Assembly: GCA_963818475.1 (NCBI GenBank)
Contig: CAWFSF010000003.1
Span: 1-64,000, forward strand
Direction of reading: 5' to 3'
DNA from: Nitrospirota bacterium
Lineage (GTDB): Bacteria; Nitrospirota; UBA9217
Length of the DNA stretch: 64,000 nt
The position numbers and the translations under genes are program-made. Numbering within the stretch: the first letter of the stretch is position 1; every line of letters starts with the position of its first letter. Below, one piece after another: positions 20,364-33,092 of the stretch. The notes beneath the pieces are model-generated. The model saw only the letters and a program-made list of their open reading frames with translations. It searched no databases and was not told where the DNA came from.

Positions 20364-21305
20364 CTACAGCGTCCGCATTTTCTTTTGCGCCACAAACGCT
20401 AATCTACTCCAACCGAGCCTGCCGAATACGCGAGCAAGCACTTTTATGGTATGTCGCTGCATTCTTCTGAATTCCTCGAATTTCGGATTTTTCCCGAGAA
20501 GCCTGTGGGTTTCGATATAATCATCAACCAGATGGGAGGCTGAGATAATGTTCTTCGGAAGCGCCTTGGAGCCGACCGCTGCGATCAGGTTTTTCCATCC
20601 CGGTTTGCCAAATACCCTGTCCAGGACTTTCGGTGTATGGCACTGGGTTAAATATTCACTGATACTCGGACGCCTGCCGAGCGCTTGCTGGAGCTTGAGA
20701 AAGTCCTGAATGAGGTGTTTCGCGCTCAAAGACCACGGCCTTGACCCCCTTTTATTATTTTCGTACGTTACGAACCCTCGCCAGGCGTTCTCTCCGAAAC
20801 GATATTTAAGGTCCTTGAGGGAGTATCCCGAGAGTTTTTGATACTGTGCAAAACTCGGCGCTTTTCCCAGCTGCCTTCTGAGATCGCGAAATGCGCTCAA
20901 CATCATGGCCTTTGTCGGGCCTTTCCGCTTGCGCGTTTTCGGCTTGCGATAGTCTCTGACGGATTTAAGCAGCTTGTCCCAGCCGCCGAACAATCTGCTT
21001 AACGTGGCAGTGCTGCAGCACTGTTCTTCAAATTCCTCGAGGGAGGGAATTCTTCCGAGTTCGGCTTTCAGGCGTCGGTAGGAGTTTTGGACGGAGTCTC
21101 TGGTAAATTTGGGATAGGGCTTCGCGCCGACAGTTTTGAGGAAGTTTCTCCATCCCGGTCTTCCGAAAATACTTATGAGCAAGGTAACGCTGTGACAATT
21201 CTTCGCATATTCCGCGCAGGAGGGTTGTCTCTCCAGTTTTCGTTCGAGGTCGCGATAATCCCTGATGAGATGCTCCTCGGTTATTATTGACTTGTAAGTA
21301 CTCAT
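20364..21305 (-). CDS. Protein of five tandem homing-endonuclease-associated helical repeats; no nuclease domain seen
   Basis: Five ~60-aa units of pattern L..LG+.PS..EY....S...L...FG..W..L. Confidence 0.8.
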   Translation of the reverse strand: MSTYKSIITEEHLIRDYRDLERKLERQPSCAEYAKNCHSVTLLISIFGRPGWRNFLKTVGAKPYPKFTRDSVQNSYRRLKAELGRIPSLEEFEEQCCSTATLSRLFGGWDKLLKSVRDYRKPKTRKRKGPTKAMMLSAFRDLRRQLGKAPSFAQYQKLSGYSLKDLKYRFGENAWRGFVTYENNKRGSRPWSLSAKHLIQDFLKLQQALGRRPSISEYLTQCHTPKVLDRVFGKPGWKNLIAAVGSKALPKNIISASHLVDDYIETHRLLGKNPKFEEFRRMQRHTIKVLARVFGRLGWSRLAFVAQKKMRTL

Positions 21306-21323
21306 TTTCCACTCATTCCGGAT

Positions 21324-22619
21324 TCAAGTCAGGCCCTCGAAGCTGTCGAACAACCGGGGCGCCTTTTTCTTCAATAAACACACGGGACAGCCACCCCGTT
21401 TGTATCGGTCGATGACCGGTTCGCGCAATTCATGTCCCTTCTCGCACTTCCACCATATCTGCCTTCGCGAATAAGGCAATACGTCCTTCGGCGTCCATGA
21501 CGCATTTTTTGCCGGATGCCATTCCCGGGTAAGCCGGGGCCCTTTGATCTCGAGGCTGTTCTTCCTGTCGGGTCTTCTCCCTGAGCAATAAGGACATCCC
21601 CTCCCTCCGCTCCTGTGGCTGAGAGAATCTTCCCACTCATGACCCTTCCGGCAGGTCCACCATACTTTACGAGAGGAGAAGGGCATCACATCCGTTGGGG
21701 TCAAAGGGGCGTTTTTCCTCGCGTGCCATTCCTTTGCAAGATTCGGCTTTACGGCCTGAAGACAGTTTTCCTCATTTACCCACTGACCCGCGCAATACGG
21801 GCATCCGTTGCCGCCGGTCCTGCTCGCGATAACAGCCGCCCATTCATGCCCTTTCCGGCAGAGCCACCAGGCTTTTTTGCCGGACCTTGAAGTGACATCC
21901 GCCGGCGTCCAAGGAGCGTTCCTGGTCGGGTGCCATTGCCTGGCAAGACCGGGGTTTACCGTCCGAAGGCGGTTGTCCTTACCGACCTTCTTCCCTGCGC
22001 AATAAGGACACCCTCTCCCCTTGTTTCTTGCGCGAACCGGAATTTGCCATTCATGCCCTTTCCCGCACAGCCACCACACTCTTTTGACGGAGCCGGGAAC
22101 GATGTCCCCCGGCATGAGCGGTGCATTCCTCGTGGGATGCCACTCCCGGGCCAGATCGGGCCTCAGCGTCTGAAGACTGTTGCCATTGTCCACCCGCCTC
22201 ATCGCGCAGATGGGGCATCCACAGCCGTTATTCCTGTTGTATATAACAGCAGCCCACTCATGACCCTTCCGGCAGGTCCACCATACCTTCTTCCTGACGG
22301 ACGGCATCACGTCCTTCGGCGTCAAGGGGGCATTCTTCGTCGGGTGCCACTCTTTTGCAAGCTCCGGGTTTATCGCCTGGAGACAGGTGTCCGGGGTAAC
22401 CTTCCGTCCCGCGCAATAGGGGCATCCTCTGCCACCACTGCTCCTGTCGCATATCGCGGCCGTCCATTCATGGCCTTTCTTACAGACCCACCAGACTTTT
22501 TTATTGGAACCCGCGGTCACATTCCTCGGCGTGAGCGGCGCGTTCTTCGTGAGCTGCCACTCTCGGGCGAGCTTCCCGTGTGTTTGAGCCAGCGTAGGTT
22601 TAGCGATTTTCTTCATCAT
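21324..22619 (-). CDS. Protein of six tandem DUF4379-type zinc-ribbon repeats; no nuclease domain seen
   Basis: Six ~69-aa units of pattern LAREWHPTKN..TP.DV...S.KKVWW.C.KGHEW......R....GCPYC. Confidence 0.88.
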   Translation of the reverse strand: MMKKIAKPTLAQTHGKLAREWQLTKNAPLTPRNVTAGSNKKVWWVCKKGHEWTAAICDRSSGGRGCPYCAGRKVTPDTCLQAINPELAKEWHPTKNAPLTPKDVMPSVRKKVWWTCRKGHEWAAVIYNRNNGCGCPICAMRRVDNGNSLQTLRPDLAREWHPTRNAPLMPGDIVPGSVKRVWWLCGKGHEWQIPVRARNKGRGCPYCAGKKVGKDNRLRTVNPGLARQWHPTRNAPWTPADVTSRSGKKAWWLCRKGHEWAAVIASRTGGNGCPYCAGQWVNEENCLQAVKPNLAKEWHARKNAPLTPTDVMPFSSRKVWWTCRKGHEWEDSLSHRSGGRGCPYCSGRRPDRKNSLEIKGPRLTREWHPAKNASWTPKDVLPYSRRQIWWKCEKGHELREPVIDRYKRGGCPVCLLKKKAPRLFDSFEGLT

Positions 22620-22638: not shown

Positions 22639-22709
22639 CTGGTTCAGGCTGCAAACCTGAACCACACGTTAATGAGTCGGTTCAATCAGCATGATTGAAC
22701 CAGCAGCGG
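22639..22709. repeat. 71-bp double-hairpin REP-like repeat, copy 1
   Basis: GGTTCAGG..CCTGAACC plus GGTTCAATCAGCATGATTGAACC; direct copy at 24840..24910. Confidence 0.8.
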
Positions 22710-22770
22710 CAACATTCAAGACACGACCCTATAGGCTTCCGACCCTATAAGCTGAGGGCCTGTTAAGCCT

Positions 22771-24234
22771 TTACAAGCCCGGGCTTCCAGTAAGATAGGC
22801 CGCAGCCGCTTCCGCGGCCTTGGCGCCGGAATTGATGCAATCGGGTATGCCGACGCCGCCGTATGACCCACCCGCAAGGAACATGCCGGGGTGCTGCGCC
22901 ACGCGCTCATTGATCTTCTTCAGGCGATCGAGGTGTCCGATGGTGTATTGAGGCATCGCCTTCGGCCACCGGAATATCCACGTGCGCACCGGCTCGGCGT
23001 CGATCCCCATGATGTCTCGCAGCTCGACTTTCACTATCTTCATCATCTCCTCGTCGGACAGGAACGCCCGATCCTCCGTTCGAGCGCCCCCGAGAAATAC
23101 GCGAACGAGCGCATAATCGTCATTTGGCACGCGCCCGCTCCACTTGGTCGAGCACCAGGTACAGGCCTTGATTTTATGCCCCTCACCCAGCGGAACGAGA
23201 AACCCAAAGCCCTTGAAATCATGTTTTACGTCGCTTCTGCGATACGCGAAGGACACGGTAGCCGACGAGACTTGCGGTATTTCATTTAATACAGAGGAGA
23301 GTTCTCCGTCGATATTGTCGATCATGGCTGCGGTATCATACGAGGGCGAGGCGAGAATGACCGCATCGGCTTCCTTCGTCGTTCCATCGGCCATCCGGAG
23401 TTTGTAGGTGCTCGTACCATCCGCGCCTTTGATCTCTTCAACCATGCGCACGTCGGCACCGACAACTATCTTGTCTTTATCGAGCGCCTTGTAAACCTCG
23501 TCTACAATATCCTGCATGCCGCCCTTGAAGGACATATGCAGCGTTCTTTTCGAGGCCGGGCCTGAAGCGCCGGGAGTTGCACCGTGTCCCGGGGCCTTAA
23601 ATCTGCTTTTCATGGCAACGATCATCCCCTTGGTAAGGCTTCCATATTTCTGTTCCGTGTCGAGCAGCAGGGGAAAGGTGGCTTCGAGGCTCATGGTGTC
23701 CGGATCGCTGGAATAGATGCCGGCAACGAGCGGATCGGCGAGCCGGTCAAGGCATTCCTTTCCTAAACGCCGCTTCACGTAGCTCGAGAGCGTCTCGTCG
23801 CCGGGCTTCTTCCTGGGGATGAACAAATCCATGGCCATGCGCAGTTTGCCCGGCCAGGAGAAAAGGTTGGTGGTAAGAAAGGGCAGGAACTTGGTGGGAA
23901 CGATCAGCATGACCCCGTCAGGCAGCTCGCGCAGTTTATTCTTGACGAGAATGAAGGTCTTTTTCAACTTGTCGTTGCTCGTTATTAATTTATTGTCGCA
24001 ATGGAGCTTTCTCGCCAGCTCGAATATCGAGGGCTTGGTTGAAATAAAAGAGTCCGGTCCGCCTTCGACGACAAAACCATCATGTGTGCGCTCTGTTTGA
24101 ATCTTGCCCCCAAGACGGGAGCTTTTCTCAAGAAGTATATAATCGATATCGACACCCGCGCTCTGGGCTGCCTTAATTGCATACGCCGCCGAAAGACCGG
24201 TTATCCCGCCGCCGATTATGACCACTTTTTTCAT
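22771..24234 (-). CDS. hemY: HemY-type protoporphyrinogen/coproporphyrinogen oxidase
   Basis: IIGGGITGLSAA, EGGPDSF, GFGFLVP, AMPQYTIGH and GVGIPDCI. Confidence 0.93.
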   Translation of the reverse strand: MKKVVIIGGGITGLSAAYAIKAAQSAGVDIDYILLEKSSRLGGKIQTERTHDGFVVEGGPDSFISTKPSIFELARKLHCDNKLITSNDKLKKTFILVKNKLRELPDGVMLIVPTKFLPFLTTNLFSWPGKLRMAMDLFIPRKKPGDETLSSYVKRRLGKECLDRLADPLVAGIYSSDPDTMSLEATFPLLLDTEQKYGSLTKGMIVAMKSRFKAPGHGATPGASGPASKRTLHMSFKGGMQDIVDEVYKALDKDKIVVGADVRMVEEIKGADGTSTYKLRMADGTTKEADAVILASPSYDTAAMIDNIDGELSSVLNEIPQVSSATVSFAYRRSDVKHDFKGFGFLVPLGEGHKIKACTWCSTKWSGRVPNDDYALVRVFLGGARTEDRAFLSDEEMMKIVKVELRDIMGIDAEPVRTWIFRWPKAMPQYTIGHLDRLKKINERVAQHPGMFLAGGSYGGVGIPDCINSGAKAAEAAAAYLTGSPGL

Positions 24235-24315
24235 CGTTACCACCTTCGCGTTCATTCGCAATATCTTCCGGATTCAACGGATCCGGATAACGAATGGCTC
24301 TTGCTTTATTTTTTT

Positions 24316-24498
24316 TCACAACGCAACGGGTGCATCAACGTCGCCTCCTGCTCCCCTTGCCATTCTAACCGAATACAGGCTGTAGCGTTTGGTAGGGTAT
24401 AACACCAAGATAAAAGACGTGTATAACCATATAAAGGGCACCTCCAGAGCTATGATTAATGTTTCGACGACCTTTTCAAGCAATTCATGTGGTCCCAT
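24316..24498 (-). pseudogene. Probable truncated remnant of a nucleotidyltransferase-like partner gene
   Basis: Start overlaps the end of the 72-aa gene; plausible N-terminus (ELLEKVVETL) then degenerates. Partner identity is recalled, not verified. Confidence 0.3.
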
Positions 24499-24703
24499 GA
24501 AGAAATCTCCTAGCCACTTCTCCTGCGACTTTTTTATCGTCCCATTCCGGGTGAGTTTTCCGGAGGTGAACCGTCAGCATCGTGTGAGACGACTCCCACA
24601 TGGTAAAGCCGATCTGTATCCGCTTGCAGGGCCTCTTTCGCTTCAGGATTTCCGCCATTGCATCGTCCACAACCTCAATCTGTCCGGCATCCAGTCTGAT
24701 CAT
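24485..24703 (-). CDS. Small hypothetical protein (antitoxin-like, HPEWD...EVARRF)
   Basis: GGAGGG RBS; compact helical 72-aa ORF. Confidence 0.65.
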   Translation of the reverse strand: MIRLDAGQIEVVDDAMAEILKRKRPCKRIQIGFTMWESSHTMLTVHLRKTHPEWDDKKVAGEVARRFLHGTT

Positions 24704-24839: not shown

Positions 24840-24910
24840 CTGGTTCAGGCTTACAGCCTGAACCACAGGTTAATTAGTCGGTTCAATCAGCATGATTGAC
24901 CCAGCAGCGG
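24840..24910. repeat. 71-bp double-hairpin REP-like repeat, copy 2
   Basis: Near-identical to 22639..22709. Confidence 0.8.
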
Positions 24911-25078: not shown

Positions 25079-26251
25079 TTATTCCATAATCTTTAGGATA
25101 TCTTTGGCTACGTACATTCTATTTCGCTGTTTGTCCTCCAATAGTTTCACAACCCTGAGTTTTTCAAGCCCCTGGAGTGCCTTCATGGCGCCTTGATGGC
25201 TCACCTTGAATTTTTTGGCAACCTCTGGAGCAGAAATAATCGGCTTTTCGAACAAGGCGTCCGTAATACCGAGGACTAAGCCGGACACGCGCTTTTGTTC
25301 TTTCAGTTTTGCACGCCAGACCAGCTGCAAGTCTTGCAGTTCTTTTGCTCTGCCGATTGCGTCCCTGGACTGCTCGGAAACGCCTTGGAGGAAAAACAGC
25401 AACCATTCCTTCCACGCACCGCGCCGGCTGACATCAAGTAGTCGTTCATAATATATCCGCCTGTTTCGTTCAAAAAATGCGCTGAGATATAAGAGCGGCA
25501 GCGGCAGAAGACCCCAGCTTGAGAGCAGGATGGAGATCAAAAGACGCCCGATCCTGCCGTTTCCGTCGATAAAAGGATGGATGGCCTCAAATTGATAATG
25601 AATGAGTCCAATACGGACCAGCGGGGGATAGGTCTCGTCGGCGTGAATATACTTTTCAAGTTTATCAAGACCTGCGGACATTTCAGAAGCAGCCGGTGGT
25701 ACATACGTGGCGTTATTCAGAGTACAGCCTGCCGGTCCGATCCAGTTTTGCGACCTGCGAAATTCACCCGGTGTTGCATGGCCTCCACGCACACCCTTCA
25801 TGAGATGCTCGTGCATCTCGCGCATGAGCCGAAGGCTGACCGGAAGCGTCTTCAAGCGTTTCATCCCATATTCCATCGCAACGACGTAGTTATGGACCTC
25901 TTTGACGTCGGATTCCGGTATCGCGGCCCCTTTGCCCGCGAGCGGCGCTTGTCCGGCTTCGTAAGCATACAATTCCGCGATATCTGCCTGTGTCCCTTCA
26001 ATCCGCGAAGAGAGCACGGCCTCCCGGTGAATAAAGGGCCGGATCAGTAAATGGGGATTCGGCATAGCGCGGCCGAGTCCGGCCAGCTCGCCAAGACTGC
26101 GATCGGCATCGGACAACGCACGGATCAGCTCATGGTCGAAGGCAAGCTCCGGCGGCAGAAGATAGGGATTAAATGACCAGTATGCTGTATCGCCTTGACC
26201 GGCTTTTATGATTTTTCCAGACGAGCTTTTTCTGAATTTTTCTATGTCCAT
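25079..26251 (-). CDS. Fic family protein with C-terminal HTH
   Basis: Catalytic HPFIDGNGRIGR and N-terminal inhibitory SSRIEG motif. Confidence 0.93.
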   Translation of the reverse strand: MDIEKFRKSSSGKIIKAGQGDTAYWSFNPYLLPPELAFDHELIRALSDADRSLGELAGLGRAMPNPHLLIRPFIHREAVLSSRIEGTQADIAELYAYEAGQAPLAGKGAAIPESDVKEVHNYVVAMEYGMKRLKTLPVSLRLMREMHEHLMKGVRGGHATPGEFRRSQNWIGPAGCTLNNATYVPPAASEMSAGLDKLEKYIHADETYPPLVRIGLIHYQFEAIHPFIDGNGRIGRLLISILLSSWGLLPLPLLYLSAFFERNRRIYYERLLDVSRRGAWKEWLLFFLQGVSEQSRDAIGRAKELQDLQLVWRAKLKEQKRVSGLVLGITDALFEKPIISAPEVAKKFKVSHQGAMKALQGLEKLRVVKLLEDKQRNRMYVAKDILKIME

Positions 26252-26447: not shown

Positions 26448-27548
26448 CTATTCTCCTATCATCGAATCCCACCATTTTAAAAGTGTATTACGCACAATAT
26501 ACTCAAAAGTATGCAAGTTGATAGGCGTGTCCTTTGCCAACCAAATACCCCCTCTGGCCTTAGTTGCCAGGCCAGTGGGCTTCTCAGAATATGCCTCCGT
26601 AATTCGAAAGGGCGGCTCGCACATGGGTTTGGGAAATGGAGTGCCTCCATGTAATGCTATAGAGCGCCAATTGTAAATGGTTTTCAACGACTCCCTAACA
26701 TACTCCCTATCCCAAGAGTGTTGAAAACCAATCGGCGGACGATCGAGAGGTGGCTCAGGTAAAAACTCCAAAACAAAATCTACGAATTTTTTTGTGGCTC
26801 CCATGTGGTCTGCGATTTGCTTCGCTACCTGCTCGACTAATTGCTGCCCACCCGCATTTCTTAGAATTTGTTCTAATACCGGGCTCTCCTTCTTAGAGCG
26901 CCAGTGTCCAGCAGCTGTTTCCAGCGCGGACACAAGCATCAACCATGTGAGTTCAGGTTCAGCTTCGGCAATCCACACCCCGTCTTGATATTGCCTGGCT
27001 GCTCTAACCAATGCAGCAGCACCACCGGGCGTGAGTAGTGGAAAATTTTTGAAGGGCGTAGCCATATCTAACGAATGTTCGCCCAATACCCGGGGCAAAA
27101 TAACCGACATCCGCGCAGAAGAAGGAAGTACGGGGTTGCGACCTATTTCATGCTCTGTTGGTTCTCCTCTGGGGTCTCCCTTTGGAAGAAAATGGCGAGT
27201 GTAACCGCCGGACTTAAGCCTTATGCCGAGACACAGTGCCAATAATGCAGCAATTTCGTCGTTGAGAAGACCCCCGTGATACCATTGAAAGTCAGTTTTC
27301 TCGAACCACGAGGTGTCGTGTTGGTACTCGACATGATACTCCACTCTAAGCACTATTGAAGGGGCAAGAGCATGTCGCGATGTTATGGGGACGGTATTCA
27401 AAAACAGATAAGGCCCATAACCAGATGTAAGCTCGCCGACTATGTGAGCGTCTGTGAATAAGGGATATTCATACGTTTCGTACGAGGGAGCACCATTTAA
27501 ATGCGCTTTCCAGTTGTCGAATGCGAACGGTCCTTGTTGCCTAGGCAC
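26448..27548 (-). CDS. HEPN-like (ApeA-type architecture) protein, putative RNase
   Basis: LMLVSALE followed by IYNWRSIALHGG (RxxxxH); lower GC than flanks. Confidence 0.6.
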   Translation of the reverse strand: MPRQQGPFAFDNWKAHLNGAPSYETYEYPLFTDAHIVGELTSGYGPYLFLNTVPITSRHALAPSIVLRVEYHVEYQHDTSWFEKTDFQWYHGGLLNDEIAALLALCLGIRLKSGGYTRHFLPKGDPRGEPTEHEIGRNPVLPSSARMSVILPRVLGEHSLDMATPFKNFPLLTPGGAAALVRAARQYQDGVWIAEAEPELTWLMLVSALETAAGHWRSKKESPVLEQILRNAGGQQLVEQVAKQIADHMGATKKFVDFVLEFLPEPPLDRPPIGFQHSWDREYVRESLKTIYNWRSIALHGGTPFPKPMCEPPFRITEAYSEKPTGLATKARGGIWLAKDTPINLHTFEYIVRNTLLKWWDSMIGE

Positions 27549-27697: not shown

Positions 27698-28645
27698 TCA
27701 CCTTCGTGGTCCGTGCATCTCTCGATACTTTTCAGTTGTATTCTCCTGATATAAAAGAGGGATAACGGTATCCATCGCAATTCGGTACGCAATATTATGA
27801 AGTAACAGAGCGTCCAGCTCAAATCGCCCATGGTCGTCCGGATGCCAAGCGTCTCTTCTTTTTGCTGAATGGTGATGCAGGTAACCTCTAAGCTTAACCA
27901 TATGCTCGATAATCTCTTCGGCAGTTTTGTTTTTAAATTTTTGCAGAAAACGGCCATAATGATTGGTGCCGATCATTAATTCTGAATCTGGACCTCTTAA
28001 TATTTTCTCAATGCAGTTTCTTAAAGGCGTTGATTTTTCAAAAACCTCCTTGACTGCTTGGTTCTTCGTCTTGCCCTCACCGAAAAAACTTTCAAGAAAA
28101 AAATAATAATCATAAAAAGCTTCTATGTATCTCTCTTCAGATATGTCTATCAGCCCTTTACGAAAAAAACTTAACGACGTTTCCACTTCTGCAGCATCAT
28201 CAGCAGCGATTATACTCCGTGCTAACAAATCAAAAGGCAAGAAGGGTAGGTCAGAAGCATTCATCTCTCCACGATGGGTTTCAAATCTATCAATTTTTAA
28301 TTTTTTCTTTTCTTCTGCATTCTCAGGAAGCCATTCTATTTCAAAATTTTTTAAATCAACAGAGTGAAGGCCGAATACTGACAAAAGAACTTCAATTGCA
28401 CGTACTTCTTTTTGAACAAATAGAAAACAGGGAGAAGGAACGTTTATGTGAGTTTTAACTCCTGCGGTAGGGTTTTCAATAACCACTGGAATATCACCAG
28501 CTTCATTAGCCGGAGCTGTAATCATTAACTGGCTGATCGTTTCATTCTCGGCAACAAATTGAAATTCTAACCCTCTTGTTTTAATCGGCTTTAAATCTGC
28601 AACCCTTATTTGACCGTGAACCTTGAATTTATATCTGCACTTCAT
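27698..28645 (-). CDS. HEPN-like protein, putative RNase
   Basis: YYFFLESFF followed by KLRGYLHH (RxxxxH); AT-rich. Confidence 0.5.
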   Translation of the reverse strand: MKCRYKFKVHGQIRVADLKPIKTRGLEFQFVAENETISQLMITAPANEAGDIPVVIENPTAGVKTHINVPSPCFLFVQKEVRAIEVLLSVFGLHSVDLKNFEIEWLPENAEEKKKLKIDRFETHRGEMNASDLPFLPFDLLARSIIAADDAAEVETSLSFFRKGLIDISEERYIEAFYDYYFFLESFFGEGKTKNQAVKEVFEKSTPLRNCIEKILRGPDSELMIGTNHYGRFLQKFKNKTAEEIIEHMVKLRGYLHHHSAKRRDAWHPDDHGRFELDALLLHNIAYRIAMDTVIPLLYQENTTEKYREMHGPRR

Positions 28646-28841: not shown

Positions 28842-29906
28842 TTACTCCAGTAATTCTATCCCTTTGACACTATCCCGATGACGCTTGCCATTGATGGCCA
28901 AGCAGATACCGCAATAATTACATTGCCTGGCATAGATTCCGGCAGGATTCGGATTGCCAAAAACCATATGACTACCAGAGAAGTCTTCCAACTTTCCGAC
29001 ACCACAGGCGGGGCAGTAGTCAAACATATTTTCGATTGGCGGGTAACCACGCATAATGAGTCGCCGAACATGATTATATGCCGTGATGGCCTCCTGTGCA
29101 CTACTCCATCTATTTGCCGAATTATGTCTGATTGTTCGAGAAAAGATATGATGAAGATGCCACGTATCTGGGTTTAGCGGAAACATTTTGGGCATAGACT
29201 TCGCAGTGAACGCTGGCTTTTCTCTTGAAAAGGCACGCTGGCCCGTAACAGCCGACCACAAGATTTTACCAGCAGAGTAAAGATCAGAGTTGATGCCTAT
29301 ATTTCCAGTCGCTCCGGATTCGCACTCTGGTGCCATGTAGTTAACTGTGCCAACACCCTCATCCGTAAGAGTAATGGTTTCGTTTCCTTCGACTTGGCAA
29401 ATACCAAAATCGATAACTCGGATAGTGCCATCTGGGACCATGAGGACATTCGCAGGACTCAAATCTCTATGAACAACTACAGGATCGTTCTTTTCACATG
29501 CCAATATCGCGTCTGCGAGCATGCGGAATAGTTCGAGGGCTTGCACTGGATCACAATAAAATGGATTGTTAGCTGCGCCAAGGATACTCTGCAGCGGCGT
29601 TGCACCCTCAATTGACTCCATCACATAATAATGAAATTCGTCCTCGCCCGAGGATGAATCAACAACTTTAATTATATAGGTGTGTTGAATGCTTTTGATA
29701 GCAGTTAACTCACGATAGAATCTCTCATAGGCTTGACGTGGTTTCCCTTTAGCAAGCCCTTTGAGCGCGTATTTCCCCTTGTACTCGCCCAAGGAATCTT
29801 CTACCTCTTGAATTTGCGCCTGTCCGCCTTCTCCAAGGGTTTTCCCTGTGGGTTTCCATCTGAGTTCTTTTGGTATTTTCATATATCGCTTCCTTCTTGA
29901 ACTCAA
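28842..29906 (-). CDS. Hanks-type Ser/Thr protein kinase with C-terminal zinc ribbon
   Basis: GEGGQA, ALK, HRDLSPAN, DFG, GTVNYMAPE, DLYSAG; CPACG..CNYCG. Confidence 0.9.
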   Translation of the reverse strand: MSSRRKRYMKIPKELRWKPTGKTLGEGGQAQIQEVEDSLGEYKGKYALKGLAKGKPRQAYERFYRELTAIKSIQHTYIIKVVDSSSGEDEFHYYVMESIEGATPLQSILGAANNPFYCDPVQALELFRMLADAILACEKNDPVVVHRDLSPANVLMVPDGTIRVIDFGICQVEGNETITLTDEGVGTVNYMAPECESGATGNIGINSDLYSAGKILWSAVTGQRAFSREKPAFTAKSMPKMFPLNPDTWHLHHIFSRTIRHNSANRWSSAQEAITAYNHVRRLIMRGYPPIENMFDYCPACGVGKLEDFSGSHMVFGNPNPAGIYARQCNYCGICLAINGKRHRDSVKGIELLE

Positions 29907-32900
29907 GACTCACTTGAATGTTGAACTATATTTCGATCTTCATCCGTCATTCCATATAACCCATACACAGTCTCGTCAATCTTTTCATCCGTCACTGCAA
30001 TCTCACGTTCGATCTTTTCGCGTTCTGCGGAGGGAGGCAGAGCGGCTTTCTTTTTATGGAGCTCGCGCATGCGGTCTACGAAAGAGACAAGCTTGTCGTG
30101 AATGGCTTTCTCAGACGGGTTATTGAAGTCGAGTGTGCGGATGGGCAATTTCTCAAGATATTGTGCAAAAAATCTTAGGTACCCCCCGCGATATGCAGCG
30201 AAGGAGTTTTTATAAAAGAACGTCATCAAGGCGGAATTCAGAATGCCGAGGAGGTATTTGTCATCGCTACATATAATATACGTTGTATTGGCCGAATAAT
30301 ATCTGCCATCTTGATCCAGCACAAAATTTCCTCTTACCGACATGTCCGGCAGCATTATCTTAGGCTTTTCAAATTCCTCATAATAGTCAACTGTATCCTG
30401 GATCTCAAACCATTTATATGAGCCAGGCTTACGTCCGTGCCATTCGCCACCCTTCCAATCTGCTGGTTTAGGTGTAAGTTGCTTTTTAAAGAGAAAAAGA
30501 TGCTTTTCAATTGATGGATATTTTTTGAGATCAACTCCACGTCGAGTAAAGATTAAGTAGCTATCGGCATCAGTTATCTCATAGCGTTTGATATCCCTCC
30601 CAACGAGAAACGGCTTTATAAGATCGGCACTCTTGGAGTCTTCCTTTATGAGCCGTCTTTTAGTTGCAGCATCTATGACAAAAGCTTCGTTAAGCCCTGT
30701 TTTAATGCCATACACGATTTTATCATTTACATACTTCCCTAACGGAATGCCAATACCTTGCAATCGGGTCAACAGCGCTTGGGACGCCTCGTTCACCAAT
30801 GACCACCCATCATCGTTAAGCGCGGCTTTATTAACAGTATAAGAGCTTTCGCTCACATAGTCGGCAAGGTCGTTGAATTCAAGTGTCTTTACCTGCGTAG
30901 CGGAAAACTTGTTTGCTGCGGCTCCCTTGCGGATACGGACGATGCACGGATAAGTCGTTGCCGTCTCGAATACCGGCAAATCACCGAAATCAGTGATTTC
31001 TTCAATCCGCTGTTTCTTCATCCATTTACGAAGTGACTCACCGTAATTGGCCCGCATCCACTTATTGGCAACGATATAGCTGAAGAGACCATCTTTCCTG
31101 AGCAGCGACACACCCTTCTCAATGAAGTATGCATAGAGATCGGCCGTGCCGTGATAAACCTCATAATGCTGCTGAAAGTAATCCTTGAAATCGCCGAGCA
31201 GCTCCTGCCTTACATAGGGCGGATTGCCGATGACCGCGTCGAAGCCGCCGTTCTCGATGATCTCACCGAAGCCGGCAGTCTTGGAGGTCCAGTCAAAGGG
31301 ATTGATGCGGGCTTTGTCTTCGTCTGTCCAACCCCACTTCGAAGCATCCCCCTCACCTCTGTCCTCTCCCACAGGGGGCGAGGATGGTTTTAAGTGCAGG
31401 GAAAGCGAAGGTGAGGCTTTGCCCCTCCCCTTGTGGGAGGGGTGCGGGGAGGGAGCGTCGAAGATGTCATACCCGACCAGGCTGTTGCCGCACTTGATAT
31501 TATTGCCGAGGGCCGGGAGAAGATGCTGCTTCCTCGGCAGCAGGCCGCGCTCCCCTTCGAGCGCCTTGAGGTACAGGCTCATCATCGTGACTTCCACGGC
31601 CTGGGCGTCGATGTCCACGCCGAAAAGGTTGTTTCTGAGAATATTCGCCTTCTCTTTGAGCGGCAGGGCCAGGTCGTCGGGGTTCACCTTTGTGTAGATA
31701 TCCAGAAAAAGGGTCTGGGCGTCTTTGGGGTGCTCCCGGTAGTAGCGGAGATGATAGTCGATGAGGTATTGATAGGCCCCGAGCAGGAACGAGCCCGAAC
31801 CGCAGGCCGGGTCGAGGATCTTTATCTTCTCGATCTGCTTCGGCGTCTTGCCCTCGATAAGCTTACCCACGGTGTTCCTGACGATATAATCGACAACGAA
31901 CTTCGGCGTATAGTAAACGCCGCCCGCCTTCTTTACCTCCGGCTTTTCCTCAACCTTCACGCGCTGGGGCGTGACGCGGATGGTGCTGCCGAGATAACGC
32001 TCGTAGATGCTGCCTAAAAGCTCTACGCCGATGGCGTCGAAACGGTATCTTGTCTTGGGGAAGTAGAGGTTGTCGATGATGTCCGAGAGAAGATCGGAAT
32101 CAACGTCCACGCTCTCGCATGCGTGCGGCTTGAAGATGTCGCCGTTCAGGTCGTCGTTCACCTCGCGGAAGAGGTCAACAAGCGCAGGCATCATGGACTT
32201 GCGCTTCCCCTCTTCCCTCCATTGCGCCACAATCTCCCAAAGCTCCCGCTCCGGCCTGATCTTCCGGTCTTCGGCAATGCGGATGAAAATGATGCGGTCG
32301 AGCAGCTTCTGGACCACGTCATTCAGCACATGGACGTCGAGGTCGTGATTTCGCTTGTTGATGTCCTTGGCAAGCTCCGTACGCCACCCGGTCAGGTCTT
32401 CGAGGAAAGACTTGTCCGGCGGGATTCTGAGGCGTTTGCTCTTCGGGTCCCGGGGAAGCAGCGCCTCCAGCGAACCCGCCGTAACACGCTCTTTCGAAAG
32501 CTCCCAGAGCTTCTCGATGTTGGCGAGAAAGTCCGTGTATTTGAAATTATAGAGAAGACCTTCCTGGGGATATTTCGGATTCGGTTTGAGCGAAGCGTCG
32601 AAGAGCTTGAACTGTTCAAAATCGGTGAGGATGACGAACTGGACTTCCTTGGTCGACCATGCGTAGGTTTTTGCCTGCATGATATGGTTCACATCGTCCA
32701 GCGGCACCCACGGGGCCTTGGCTTCGACGAAGAGTTTGGTGCTGCCGTTTATGCGGAAGTTGTAATCAGGGCGAAGGGATGTTTCCGGGGAAAGCTCGAC
32801 GATCACGTCGCGGTCATGGGGCGGTTTGTGGGCCTTGTTCTCGATGTCCCAGCCGAGGGCGTCGAAAAAGGGATTCAGAAAATCGATGCGTACTTGGGCT

Positions 32901-32995
32901 TCGGGATAGCCCTTCTGGAGGTAGTGGTTTTTGTCCTGTTCGAACTTCGAGACTAAGGAGCGCAGTTTTTCCCGGAATGAGTCGATATCAGCCAT
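29903..32995 (-). CDS. Type IIG restriction-modification enzyme (endonuclease + N6-adenine methyltransferase + TRD)
   Basis: RPDY...FVEAK nuclease, GGVYYTP, ILDPACGSGSFL, FDAVIGNPPYV and TaqI-like C-terminus. Confidence 0.92.
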   Translation of the reverse strand: MADIDSFREKLRSLVSKFEQDKNHYLQKGYPEAQVRIDFLNPFFDALGWDIENKAHKPPHDRDVIVELSPETSLRPDYNFRINGSTKLFVEAKAPWVPLDDVNHIMQAKTYAWSTKEVQFVILTDFEQFKLFDASLKPNPKYPQEGLLYNFKYTDFLANIEKLWELSKERVTAGSLEALLPRDPKSKRLRIPPDKSFLEDLTGWRTELAKDINKRNHDLDVHVLNDVVQKLLDRIIFIRIAEDRKIRPERELWEIVAQWREEGKRKSMMPALVDLFREVNDDLNGDIFKPHACESVDVDSDLLSDIIDNLYFPKTRYRFDAIGVELLGSIYERYLGSTIRVTPQRVKVEEKPEVKKAGGVYYTPKFVVDYIVRNTVGKLIEGKTPKQIEKIKILDPACGSGSFLLGAYQYLIDYHLRYYREHPKDAQTLFLDIYTKVNPDDLALPLKEKANILRNNLFGVDIDAQAVEVTMMSLYLKALEGERGLLPRKQHLLPALGNNIKCGNSLVGYDIFDAPSPHPSHKGRGKASPSLSLHLKPSSPPVGEDRGEGDASKWGWTDEDKARINPFDWTSKTAGFGEIIENGGFDAVIGNPPYVRQELLGDFKDYFQQHYEVYHGTADLYAYFIEKGVSLLRKDGLFSYIVANKWMRANYGESLRKWMKKQRIEEITDFGDLPVFETATTYPCIVRIRKGAAANKFSATQVKTLEFNDLADYVSESSYTVNKAALNDDGWSLVNEASQALLTRLQGIGIPLGKYVNDKIVYGIKTGLNEAFVIDAATKRRLIKEDSKSADLIKPFLVGRDIKRYEITDADSYLIFTRRGVDLKKYPSIEKHLFLFKKQLTPKPADWKGGEWHGRKPGSYKWFEIQDTVDYYEEFEKPKIMLPDMSVRGNFVLDQDGRYYSANTTYIICSDDKYLLGILNSALMTFFYKNSFAAYRGGYLRFFAQYLEKLPIRTLDFNNPSEKAIHDKLVSFVDRMRELHKKKAALPPSAEREKIEREIAVTDEKIDETVYGLYGMTDEDRNIVQHSSES
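31348..31453. repeat. GC-rich palindromic element inserted in frame in the R-M gene
   Basis: CCCCTCACCTCTGTCCTCTCCCACAGGGGGCGAGG...CCCCTCCCCTTGTGGGAGGGGTGCGGGGAGGG; same family as 2322..2370. Confidence 0.7.
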
Positions 32996-33092
32996 GGTAC
33001 CCCTTGGCGCAAAGGATAGGTTCCATCGCCGCATATCATAGCATCAAACTCCCGGATACTGAAGTTCTTTTTGATCAAGAAGCATCACAGCG

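Follow-up and report, generated by a model that had tools for sequence, protein, structure and literature searches.

Analysis of a 64,000-nucleotide stretch of DNA (hereafter the window) from a Nitrospirota bacterium (GTDB lineage UBA9217; GenBank assembly GCA_963818475.1, contig CAWFSF010000003.1, positions 1 to 64,000 of the forward strand) revealed two adjacent genes, termed A and B, whose products consist of tandem modules of two different families, six DUF4379 units in A and five HNH_repeat units in B, and contain no catalytic domain. A and B do not form a conserved operon or two-part system, and comparison with orthologous loci indicates that A was placed beside B recently, with nearly open reading frame (ORF)-precise boundaries, inside a local rearrangement of about 3 kb. 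The explanation considered most likely, and on balance probable, is that A and B are two independent array proteins, with ancestry in the aiming modules of homing or restriction enzymes, which would bind without cutting and for which the CapR protein provides a model. Both belong, as ordinary members, to large families that are named but uncharacterised; the suggested pairing of A with B is largely an accident of local rearrangement, and the locus alone reveals no new system.

Architecture of genes A and B and their relatives

The two genes and their repeat units, all on the minus strand, are located as follows.

21324-22619, minus strand: gene A, 431 aa, six tandem DUF4379 treble-clef zinc units
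22404-22571, minus strand: A unit 1 (DUF4379), 76.4 bits
22197-22361, minus strand: A unit 2 (DUF4379), 75.3 bits
21990-22154, minus strand: A unit 3 (DUF4379), 74.9 bits
21783-21947, minus strand: A unit 4 (DUF4379), 73.7 bits
21576-21740, minus strand: A unit 5 (DUF4379), 76.7 bits
21378-21533, minus strand: A unit 6 (DUF4379), distinctive terminal unit ..V[IV]DRY..GGCP.C..PRLF
20364-21305, minus strand: gene B, 313 aa, five HNH_repeat units, four-helix modules resembling a helix-turn-helix (HTH) fold
21120-21284, minus strand: B unit 1, model helices 10-59, boundaries from the unit alignment
20952-21107, minus strand: B unit 2, from the AlphaFold2 model and unit alignment
20742-20918, minus strand: B unit 3, from the AlphaFold2 model and unit alignment
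20559-20729, minus strand: B unit 4, most conserved unit across orthologues
20367-20546, minus strand: B unit 5, from the AlphaFold2 model and unit alignment

Both ORFs, their lengths, the 18-bp gap between them and their strong basicity (isoelectric points of 10.07 for A and 10.38 for B) are as an earlier note on this DNA had described them, and its count of six plus five repeats without a catalytic domain also holds, no catalytic family having been matched in either protein in Pfam (at E ≤ 1), NCBIfam, PHROGs or PADLOC. A matched the Pfam family DUF4379 (PF14311) in six stretches with 375.7 bits (E 7e-115; gathering cut-off 24.5) and B matched HNH_repeat (PF18780) in five stretches with 107.6 bits (E 4e-31; gathering cut-off 26). 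The PHROG matches of A correspond to the repeat part of phage endonuclease families, while in PADLOC-DB 2.0 B was unmatched and A matched just PDC-M01B (15.6 bits, E 0.002) with no passing stretch. A profile search of the contigs of the 4.66-Mb genome found the A-B locus in single copy, with six strong DUF4379 matches (58.9-76.7 bits for the six units of A) and both HNH_repeat matches. A has a GC content of 57.8% and B one of 50.3%, compared with 54.9% for the whole genome. The only other DUF4379-like match of the host genome is weak (G000:C6:766175-766258, 28.6 bits) and consists of a single partial unit in a 241-aa open frame.

The units of A follow a strict 69-aa period with a single 70-aa step and are 33-64% identical to one another. 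They tile the entire protein, which consists of about 9 aa, the six units and a short tail, and this tiling leaves no room for a hidden nuclease and no trace of a degraded one. The pattern C-x3-H ... C-x2-C is kept in all six units (24 ligands) and is invariant across seven aligned relatives, which points to putative zinc binding via four ligands in each unit. Six zinc units had been correctly recognised in the earlier note; the fold name given there is zinc ribbon, and Pfam describes the family as a treble-clef zinc finger. The signature of unit 6 is mostly common to the homologue P0138 and to the A-like proteins of loci L012 and L040. The scaffold of the units is conserved and the most variable part is a patch of seven residues after GHE[W/L], exactly as previously listed (TAAICDR, AAVIYNR, QIPVRAR, AAVIASR, EDSLSHR and REPVIDR). 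Within the patch, pairs of different units have an identity of 0.28-0.29 and same-index units of orthologues one of 0.35-0.40, the corresponding values for the scaffold being 0.50 and 0.57-0.60; the unit-specificity of the patches across orthologues is therefore modest, and an early impression of a strong signal was dropped.

Regarding B, AlphaFold2 modelling with 39 orthologues gave five four-helix units (predicted local distance difference test, pLDDT, 83) with an unfixed arrangement between units (predicted template modelling score, pTM, 0.32), and the model of a single unit, from an alignment of 70 single units from the window and 13 orthologue loci, reached a pLDDT of 95.9 and a pTM of 0.81. 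When the unit was compared with 48,161 chains using VIA-align, N-terminal DNA-binding domains from the TetR/AcrR family ranked top, with such titles in 24 of the 50 top rows (Z 5.0-6.9, root-mean-square deviation 2.2-3.4 Å, 54-55 of 57 residues), all 24 alignments falling in the first 60-90 residues of the chain; the rows include 6a4l_A (Z 6.9, 2.9 Å, 55 residues) and 2hyt_A (Z 6.7). Since Z values below 8 are middling, the modelled unit is read as resembling an HTH-like fold of the TetR N-terminal type and not as a member of the TetR family. It differs from TetR/AcrR proteins in that its identity to them is just 4-24%, in that B has no ligand-binding domain, and in that B carries five tandem units whereas TetR chains have one each.

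The length of B and its five units, conserved by position, are kept across about 40 orthologues down to 36% identity, so that B is unlike a shuffling code, its unit number being fixed and its units position-specific. Variation in repeat number, which the earlier note had proposed to look for among orthologues, was found for the relatives of A, of which the array-only ones (among the best 120 homologues) have 5-10 units. A code like that of transcription activator-like effectors (TALE) or C2H2 fingers, in which each unit would read a fixed number of bases, would have its counterpart in the conserved scaffold of A with a hypervariable patch in each unit; in unit number, A relatives vary and B orthologues do not. 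Against nearest relatives, the nonsynonymous divergence (dN) of A is about 0.3 with saturated synonymous divergence (dS > 1.8), and B has a dS of 0.38-0.64 and a dN/dS of 0.31-0.43; both genes are under purifying selection.

At least 7,999 candidate proteins matched A. Its nearest relatives are array-only, namely P0048 (94-95% identity), P0138 (67-68%) and also the A-like genes found at L047, L012 and L040, and a hidden Markov model (HMM) of the unit detected no extra non-unit stretch in P0048, P0138 or P0164. Among the best 120 homologues, 68 are array-only and 52 contain 84-164 aa that the units leave uncovered, often in mid-array; this coverage by the unit HMM overturned an estimate from a regular-expression count that nearly all relatives were array-only. 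Twenty of the 52 were scanned, with HNH_3 found in three and DUF559 in one above the cut-off, weak, below-cut-off matches of the Vsr type (MTES_1575, DUF559) in eight, and no match in eight. The array parts of the nuclease-type homologues are 45-59% identical to A, or 51-59% where Vsr-like stretches are embedded, and the nuclease-bearing relatives are just slightly more distant than the array-only ones. In 69 phage records, two to four A-related units lie within genes annotated as GIY-YIG, HNH, T5orf172 or endonuclease. A further 133 plasmid records (Bacillus, Rhodococcus, Streptomyces and others) hold array-only genes annotated as zinc-ribbon domain-containing proteins.

Two fusions of the A family were observed within the phylum. 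The gene at L045:7543-10836 (G230:C8, same genus) encodes 1,097 aa with three DUF4379 units, GmrSD_N (DUF262) and a C-terminal HNH domain; its domains suggest a restriction-like enzyme of type IV whose aiming part would be made of zinc modules, and it adjoins genes for DUF4917 and DUF488 proteins. The gene at L046:5561-7420 (G024:C60) encodes 619 aa with six DUF4379 units and a weak C-terminal HEPN_RiboL-PSP match (27.8 bits; cut-off 28.4). If that match is true, the protein would couple an array of zinc modules to an RNase or direct it at RNA.

For B, a profile search of 1.84 billion representatives yielded 2,344 relatives at E ≤ 0.001, of which 86 of the best 150 were scanned for domains. 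HNH_repeat was the only family in 71, with up to 22 units; 14 had an extra domain (ResIII helicase in seven, Mrr_cat in four, HNH in two, DUF559 in one) and one had no match. DUF4379 was not detected in any of the 86, nor a DUF4379-like motif in 145 relatives, and tblastn of B against phage records gave no match. Haloarchaeal plasmid proteins combine a C2H2 finger, three HNH_repeat units and HNH (e.g., WP_004060446.1). Several large relatives, P0169 (1313 aa), P0175 (1188 aa), P0180, P0181 and P0207, consist of 15-22 tandem HNH_repeat units with no other credible domain.

The earlier statement that both repeat types usually accompany endonucleases was thus too strong, given 71/86 B and 68/120 A relatives with no extra domain; its more general part is sound, as relatives of both modules sit in nucleic-acid enzymes, DUF4379 with GIY-YIG, HNH, T5orf172 or GmrSD_N and HNH_repeat with ResIII, Mrr_cat, HNH or DUF559. 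Whether the closest homologues carry a nuclease was also checked, and those of A and B proved array-only; A and B accordingly show no sign of a decayed nuclease.

Conservation of the pairing and recent rearrangement

The orthologous family of B comprises 44 proteins, nearly all of about 310 aa and 36-97% identical, and all genome records, as well as the one source that carries a name, are from Nitrospirota. Thirty B loci were fetched, giving 15 distinct non-window loci with a full-length orthologue (L021 repeats L010), and an A-like neighbour was present at only one of these, L012, where the order is B then A, the reverse of the window, with an ATGA stop/start overlap. The closest orthologue with context (L019, B 78% identical at the protein level) has no A within 1.6 kb upstream and 2.7 kb downstream. 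A 4,460-bp metagenome contig carries B (97%) and A (94%) together and belongs to a near-identical strain.

In a phylum sample of 401 genomes, B was found in eight, all of one family, HNH_repeat in 68 and DUF4379 arrays in nine, and the two module types were adjacent in two genomes, that of the window (G000) and G200. DUF4379 is absent from G103, G115 and G119 (100, 97 and 97% complete) despite their B-family genes, which are full-length orthologues of 67% identity in G103 and G115 and 36% identical in G119. Similarly, a B neighbour is missing at 10 of the sample's 11 other DUF4379 loci. A third adjacency might exist in G161, where a contig of 2,695 bp carries an A-like gene and a B-like gene truncated at its 5' end opens another contig, although no sequence overlap joins the ends of the two. 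Outside the phylum, the neighbourhoods of A relatives were covered by three annotated plasmid records (of the 133), in none of which an HNH_repeat neighbour is annotated beside the A-like gene.

The two-gene operon proposed in the earlier note is therefore not conserved, A-like genes occurring at just 1/15 B loci, DUF4379 being absent from three near-complete genomes with B, and A being apparently newly inserted. The possibility raised there that the two genes never co-occur elsewhere does not hold in its strict form, one more adjacency (L012) having been found. The pairing had been called undescribed, and literature searches by family name and by identifiers that may not all be the right ones likewise found no description of DUF4379 paired with HNH_repeat.

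The features that bear on the history of the locus are the following.

21306-21323, minus strand: A-B spacer, 18 nt; with the TGA stop of A homologous to the ancestral B leader
22639-22712, minus strand: two-hairpin element, copy 1, about 74 nt, ending about 20 nt before the ATG of A
22639-22712, minus strand: hairpins of the 74-nt element, GGTTCAATCA..TGATTGAACC and GGTTCAGG..CCTGAACC
24840-24910, minus strand: two-hairpin element, copy 2 (90% identical), preceding the Rv0078B-like gene, a position it also has in L020
20111-20151: 41-nt direct repeat, copy 1, downstream of B
24308-24348: 41-nt direct repeat, copy 2, upstream of the amine-oxidase gene
22771-24261, minus strand: flavin amine-oxidase family gene (Pfam Amino_oxidase, E 3.4e-54), within the extra segment of about 3 kb
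24485-24703, minus strand: Rv0078B-related antitoxin-like gene, upstream of the extra segment

Conservation covers B together with 21-24 nt of its leader, and homology with L019, L020, L022, L024 and L025 ends at 21326-21329 (blastn). In L019 the sequence just upstream of the B leader corresponds to window positions 24372-24421, which adjoin the Rv0078B-like gene, and in L020 an Rv0078B-like gene of 97% identity is found upstream of B at a distance of about 250 bp. Relative to the orthologous loci, the window contains about 3.05 kb of extra sequence (24371-21327), which comprises a copy of the 41-nt repeat, the amine-oxidase gene (which we take to be protoporphyrinogen-oxidase-like), the 74-nt element and A. 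Alignment of the junction shows that the TGA stop of A and the 18-nt spacer are ancestral B leader and places the breakpoint within the last codons of A. The tail of A (..PRLFDSFEGLT) departs from that of the A-like proteins of L040 and L012 (..PRLFETA) because the stop lies in the B leader. The tight A-B spacing is hence the product of a recent rearrangement, and not a conserved operon design, since the insert is absent from the orthologous loci. The dS values of the two genes against their nearest relatives also contrast, being saturated only for A.

The 41-nt repeats are 88% identical, bracket the block of amine-oxidase gene, A and B, and are the only two full-length copies in the genome, with a partial 23-nt match on the same contig outside the window (C3:119761-119783); the pair looks like the scar of a local rearrangement. 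The hairpin element has two copies in the genome and is also found at L020:5382-5450, before the Rv0078B-like gene; both hairpins share GGTTCA...TGAACC arms, and the element may be an operator or attenuator.

Proposed binding without cutting and competing explanations

A reading of nucleic acid by A and B without a nuclease is plausible. In the explanation favoured here, A with six treble-clef zinc modules and B with five HTH-like modules would each occupy a long specific DNA site, and occupancy would repress or occlude the target in the manner of CapR. A was dropped, almost ORF-sized, into the leader of B; the two genes may be co-transcribed and are not an obligate pair.

Several known systems provide comparisons. 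Homing endonucleases described in PMC12350094 carry three to five CapR-, DUF4379- or DUF723-like domains together with an EDxHD/Vsr nuclease, these being related aiming domains. A resembles such zinc-module enzymes in its tandem units of about 60-70 aa, which are treble clefs of the same Pfam family and vary in number, and differs from them in having no nuclease and in lying outside any intron or intein, on the chromosome beside a defence island. Mobile insertion with tight, homing-like boundaries would fit a breakpoint in the last codons of A and a hairpin element ending about 20 nt before its ATG, in a segment absent from the orthologous loci; the insert, however, also carries the oxidase gene. 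CapR, from the PLE satellite of Vibrio cholerae, is described as a nuclease-free protein with a single zinc-finger domain of homing-endonuclease origin, which represses a specific phage promoter; its ligand is double-stranded DNA and Cys-to-Ser changes abolish binding (PMC8096241). The likeness is of a nuclease-free zinc module of homing ancestry in a defence-related element, and the difference is that CapR has a single module and A has six. A did not match the Pfam CapR model (PF21817) at E ≤ 1, although the model appeared among the matches of P0137. The haloarchaeal HNH endonucleases (WP_004060446.1, Haloferax mediterranei pHM100) also combine a zinc finger with HNH_repeat modules (E 5.5e-61); they differ in being one polypeptide, with C2H2 and not DUF4379, three units and an HNH_2/HNH match, whereas the chain of B stops after unit 5, at residue 313, without an HNH match. 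The array-only plasmid genes, which come from other phyla, are of the same family and build as A, with 35-51% identity over 79-99% of A among the matches listed, and in the three annotated records they are solitary amid integrases, insertion sequence (IS) elements and HTH regulators.

Several points weigh against binding to DNA by two independent proteins. Foldseek searches with whole B (pdb) and with a single unit found no match at E ≤ 0.001, and the middling VIA-align scores may reflect a mere common helical arrangement. Promoter-like and terminator-like matches around A and B did not exceed those of shuffled sequence. Literature searches found no binding experiment on array-only DUF4379 or HNH_repeat proteins. 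The solved DUF4379 proteins found by sequence are only trypanosome mitoribosome assembly factors, mt-SAF33 (6sga, E 2.3e-8) and 6yxx_E2, and RNA is a live alternative ligand for A because mt-SAF33 binds immature rRNA. Moreover, genes of the A and B types meet more than chance suggests, at L012 and in a shared slot of paralogous cassettes, which fits some functional kinship that independence leaves unexplained.

This kinship is the core of the view that A and B are a true functional pair, whose zinc and HTH arrays would bind one long site or each other; it is judged unlikely, and so, to the same degree, is the role it would give the pair in sensing, regulation or immunity, whether for the defence island or for the cassettes of CARDB/TED and transglutaminase genes described below. 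The two adjacencies differ in order (A-B with 18 nt in the window, B-A with an ATGA overlap at L012, just upstream of transglutaminase and TED fragments), B-like and A-like genes occupy the same slot of tandem paralogous cassettes in G200:C15, and a zinc finger and HNH_repeat units occur within single haloarchaeal endonucleases. Two chance adjacencies would be unexpected since both families are rare in the 401-genome sample (nine and eight genomes). The shared contexts, which suggest functional likeness of the two families or common niches, are the main evidence for a pair. They are outweighed by the lack of an A-like gene at 14/15 other full-length B loci, the three near-complete B-family genomes without DUF4379, the 10/11 other DUF4379 loci without a B neighbour, the complete separation of the families among the scanned B relatives (DUF4379 in 0/86, its motif in 0/145), the three plasmid genes with no HNH_repeat neighbour annotated, and the recent rearrangement that produced the adjacency in the window. 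Complex prediction for A and B (score 0.00 in two runs, mark 0.32, without controls) is evidence for neither side.

Somewhat less probable still is that A-type arrays are dedicated regulators or accessories of the CARDB/TED and transglutaminase cassettes, with the A of the window displaced and acting in trans on the three such cassettes elsewhere in its genome. Four of the 11 other DUF4379 loci place the array directly after a CARDB/TED gene, a transglutaminase-core gene then following in three of the four; the three cassettes of the window genome have no DUF4379 gene of their own, and the terminal unit of A is mostly common to the L040 cassette copy. The link is, however, limited to three genomes from a single bacterial family, A-like genes at other places lie beside Fic or toxin-antitoxin genes or are fused to defence effectors, no such cassette is annotated around the three plasmid copies, and the position fits selfish insertion into a variable, multi-copy region equally well. 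The same low probability is given to a broader proposal, in which array-only DUF4379 and HNH_repeat proteins would be interchangeable mobile ORF-sized cassettes, acting as programmable site-occluders, and A and B would cooperate where they meet. Such cassettes would insert into operon leaders and the slots of variable islands, and might serve, for example, as immunity against cognate array-nucleases or as repressors wired into defence or envelope cassettes.

Nuclease-bearing relatives close to A (51-59% array identity, with embedded Vsr-like stretches) and the near ORF-precise insertion of A, which is like that of free-standing homing genes, would also be expected if A and B were functionless, decaying remnants of selfish homing-type elements that have lost their nuclease. 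This is improbable in view of the intact ORFs, the retention of all 24 zinc ligands in A, the constancy of B in length and unit number over about 40 orthologues with dN/dS of 0.31-0.43, the dN of about 0.3 against saturated dS in A, and the lack of any degraded nuclease trace. The least probable of the explanations considered, and very doubtful, is that A binds RNA as a chaperone, ribosome-associated factor or anti-RNA-phage factor. It draws on mt-SAF33 and 6yxx_E2 as the sole sequence-detectable solved structures, the former lying on the immature h22/h23 region of the 9S rRNA (PMC8784144), and on the weak HEPN (RNase-type) match of the relative L046/G024. Against it, most fusion partners of DUF4379 are DNA nucleases (GIY-YIG, HNH, Vsr/DUF559-type, GmrSD), and the related CapR domain binds double-stranded DNA (PMC8096241).

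Returning to binding without cutting, its interest would extend beyond this locus, as thousands of bacterial and plasmid genes are arrays of these two module types free of a catalytic part. If such arrays bind long specific DNA alone, they would offer programmable DNA recognition a compact scaffold of natural origin, and would be a widespread means by which sites in mobile and defence DNA are regulated or blocked. As an example the locus is clean and intact, and its recent history can be read; most noteworthy are the equivalence of A-like and B-like genes in one slot and the ORF-precise insertion.

Defence island and putative envelope cassettes

Upstream of the Rv0078B-like gene, the window contains the following defence genes.

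25079-26251, minus strand: SoFic-type Fic defence gene (PADLOC SoFic, E 1.3e-117; Pfam Fic_N, Fic)
28842-29906, minus strand: PD-T4-6-like Ser/Thr kinase (PADLOC, E 3.8e-38; Pfam Pkinase)
29903-33034, minus strand: type IIG restriction-modification (R-M) enzyme (PADLOC REase_MTase_IIG, E 4.9e-194)

B is the terminal gene of this type IIG R-M, PD-T4-6 and SoFic island, and its orthologues typically end such R-M islands, a type IIG or MmeI-family gene or remnant being present upstream of B at 7/15 loci. These include an MmeI_N fragment (L013), a 590-aa enzyme (L020), and a full MmeI enzyme with an MmeI_C fragment (L027). The others are pieces of an orthologue of the IIG enzyme of the window, namely an 83-aa N-terminal remnant (L022:754-1005 and L023:5731-5982), a 98-nt 3' remnant of the gene (L024:2-99) and a 154-aa fusion of about 88 N-terminal and 54 C-terminal residues (L025:195-659). 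The remnants of L022-L025, directly 5' of the B orthologues, show one R-M gene in a series of states of decay at a single chromosomal position. Two genes located between the PD-T4-6-like kinase and SoFic (26448-27548, 366 aa, and 27698-28645, 315 aa) had no Pfam or PADLOC match, and a close homologue of the 366-aa protein (E 5.5e-108) lies beside an R-M gene in L020; both may be unrecognised defence genes. Elsewhere, a Fic gene with 91% DNA identity to that of the window is followed in G182 by an A-like gene.

Regarding the cassettes, the loci at which an A-like gene follows a CARDB/TED (α-macroglobulin-like) gene are L040 (G161:C350), L042 (G111:C12), L043 (G200:C4) and L044 (G200:C15). At L040 and at L042 these two genes share a 4-nt overlap, and an Xre-type HTH gene comes after the A-like gene; the transglutaminase-core gene that then follows in three of the four is giant, and the L040 contig ends before this point. 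The slot gene is a DUF4379 array or, once, an HNH_repeat protein: of the two tandem cassettes of G200:C15, one has a 150-aa B-like gene in the slot and the other a 520-aa A-like gene. At L012, the B-A pair is followed by the transglutaminase and TED fragments, more A-like fragments and an IS element. The cassettes of the window genome that have no slot gene lie at C2:546-560 kb, C5:282-292 kb and C6:1631-1641 kb. The cassette as a whole encodes giant, apparently secreted proteins, with a CARDB and TED/terpenoid-cyclase-like protein, the slot gene, often an Xre-type HTH gene, and a transglutaminase-core protein, the last of which carries M23, NlpC/P60 or CHAP domains, together with about 297 aa of unassigned sequence.

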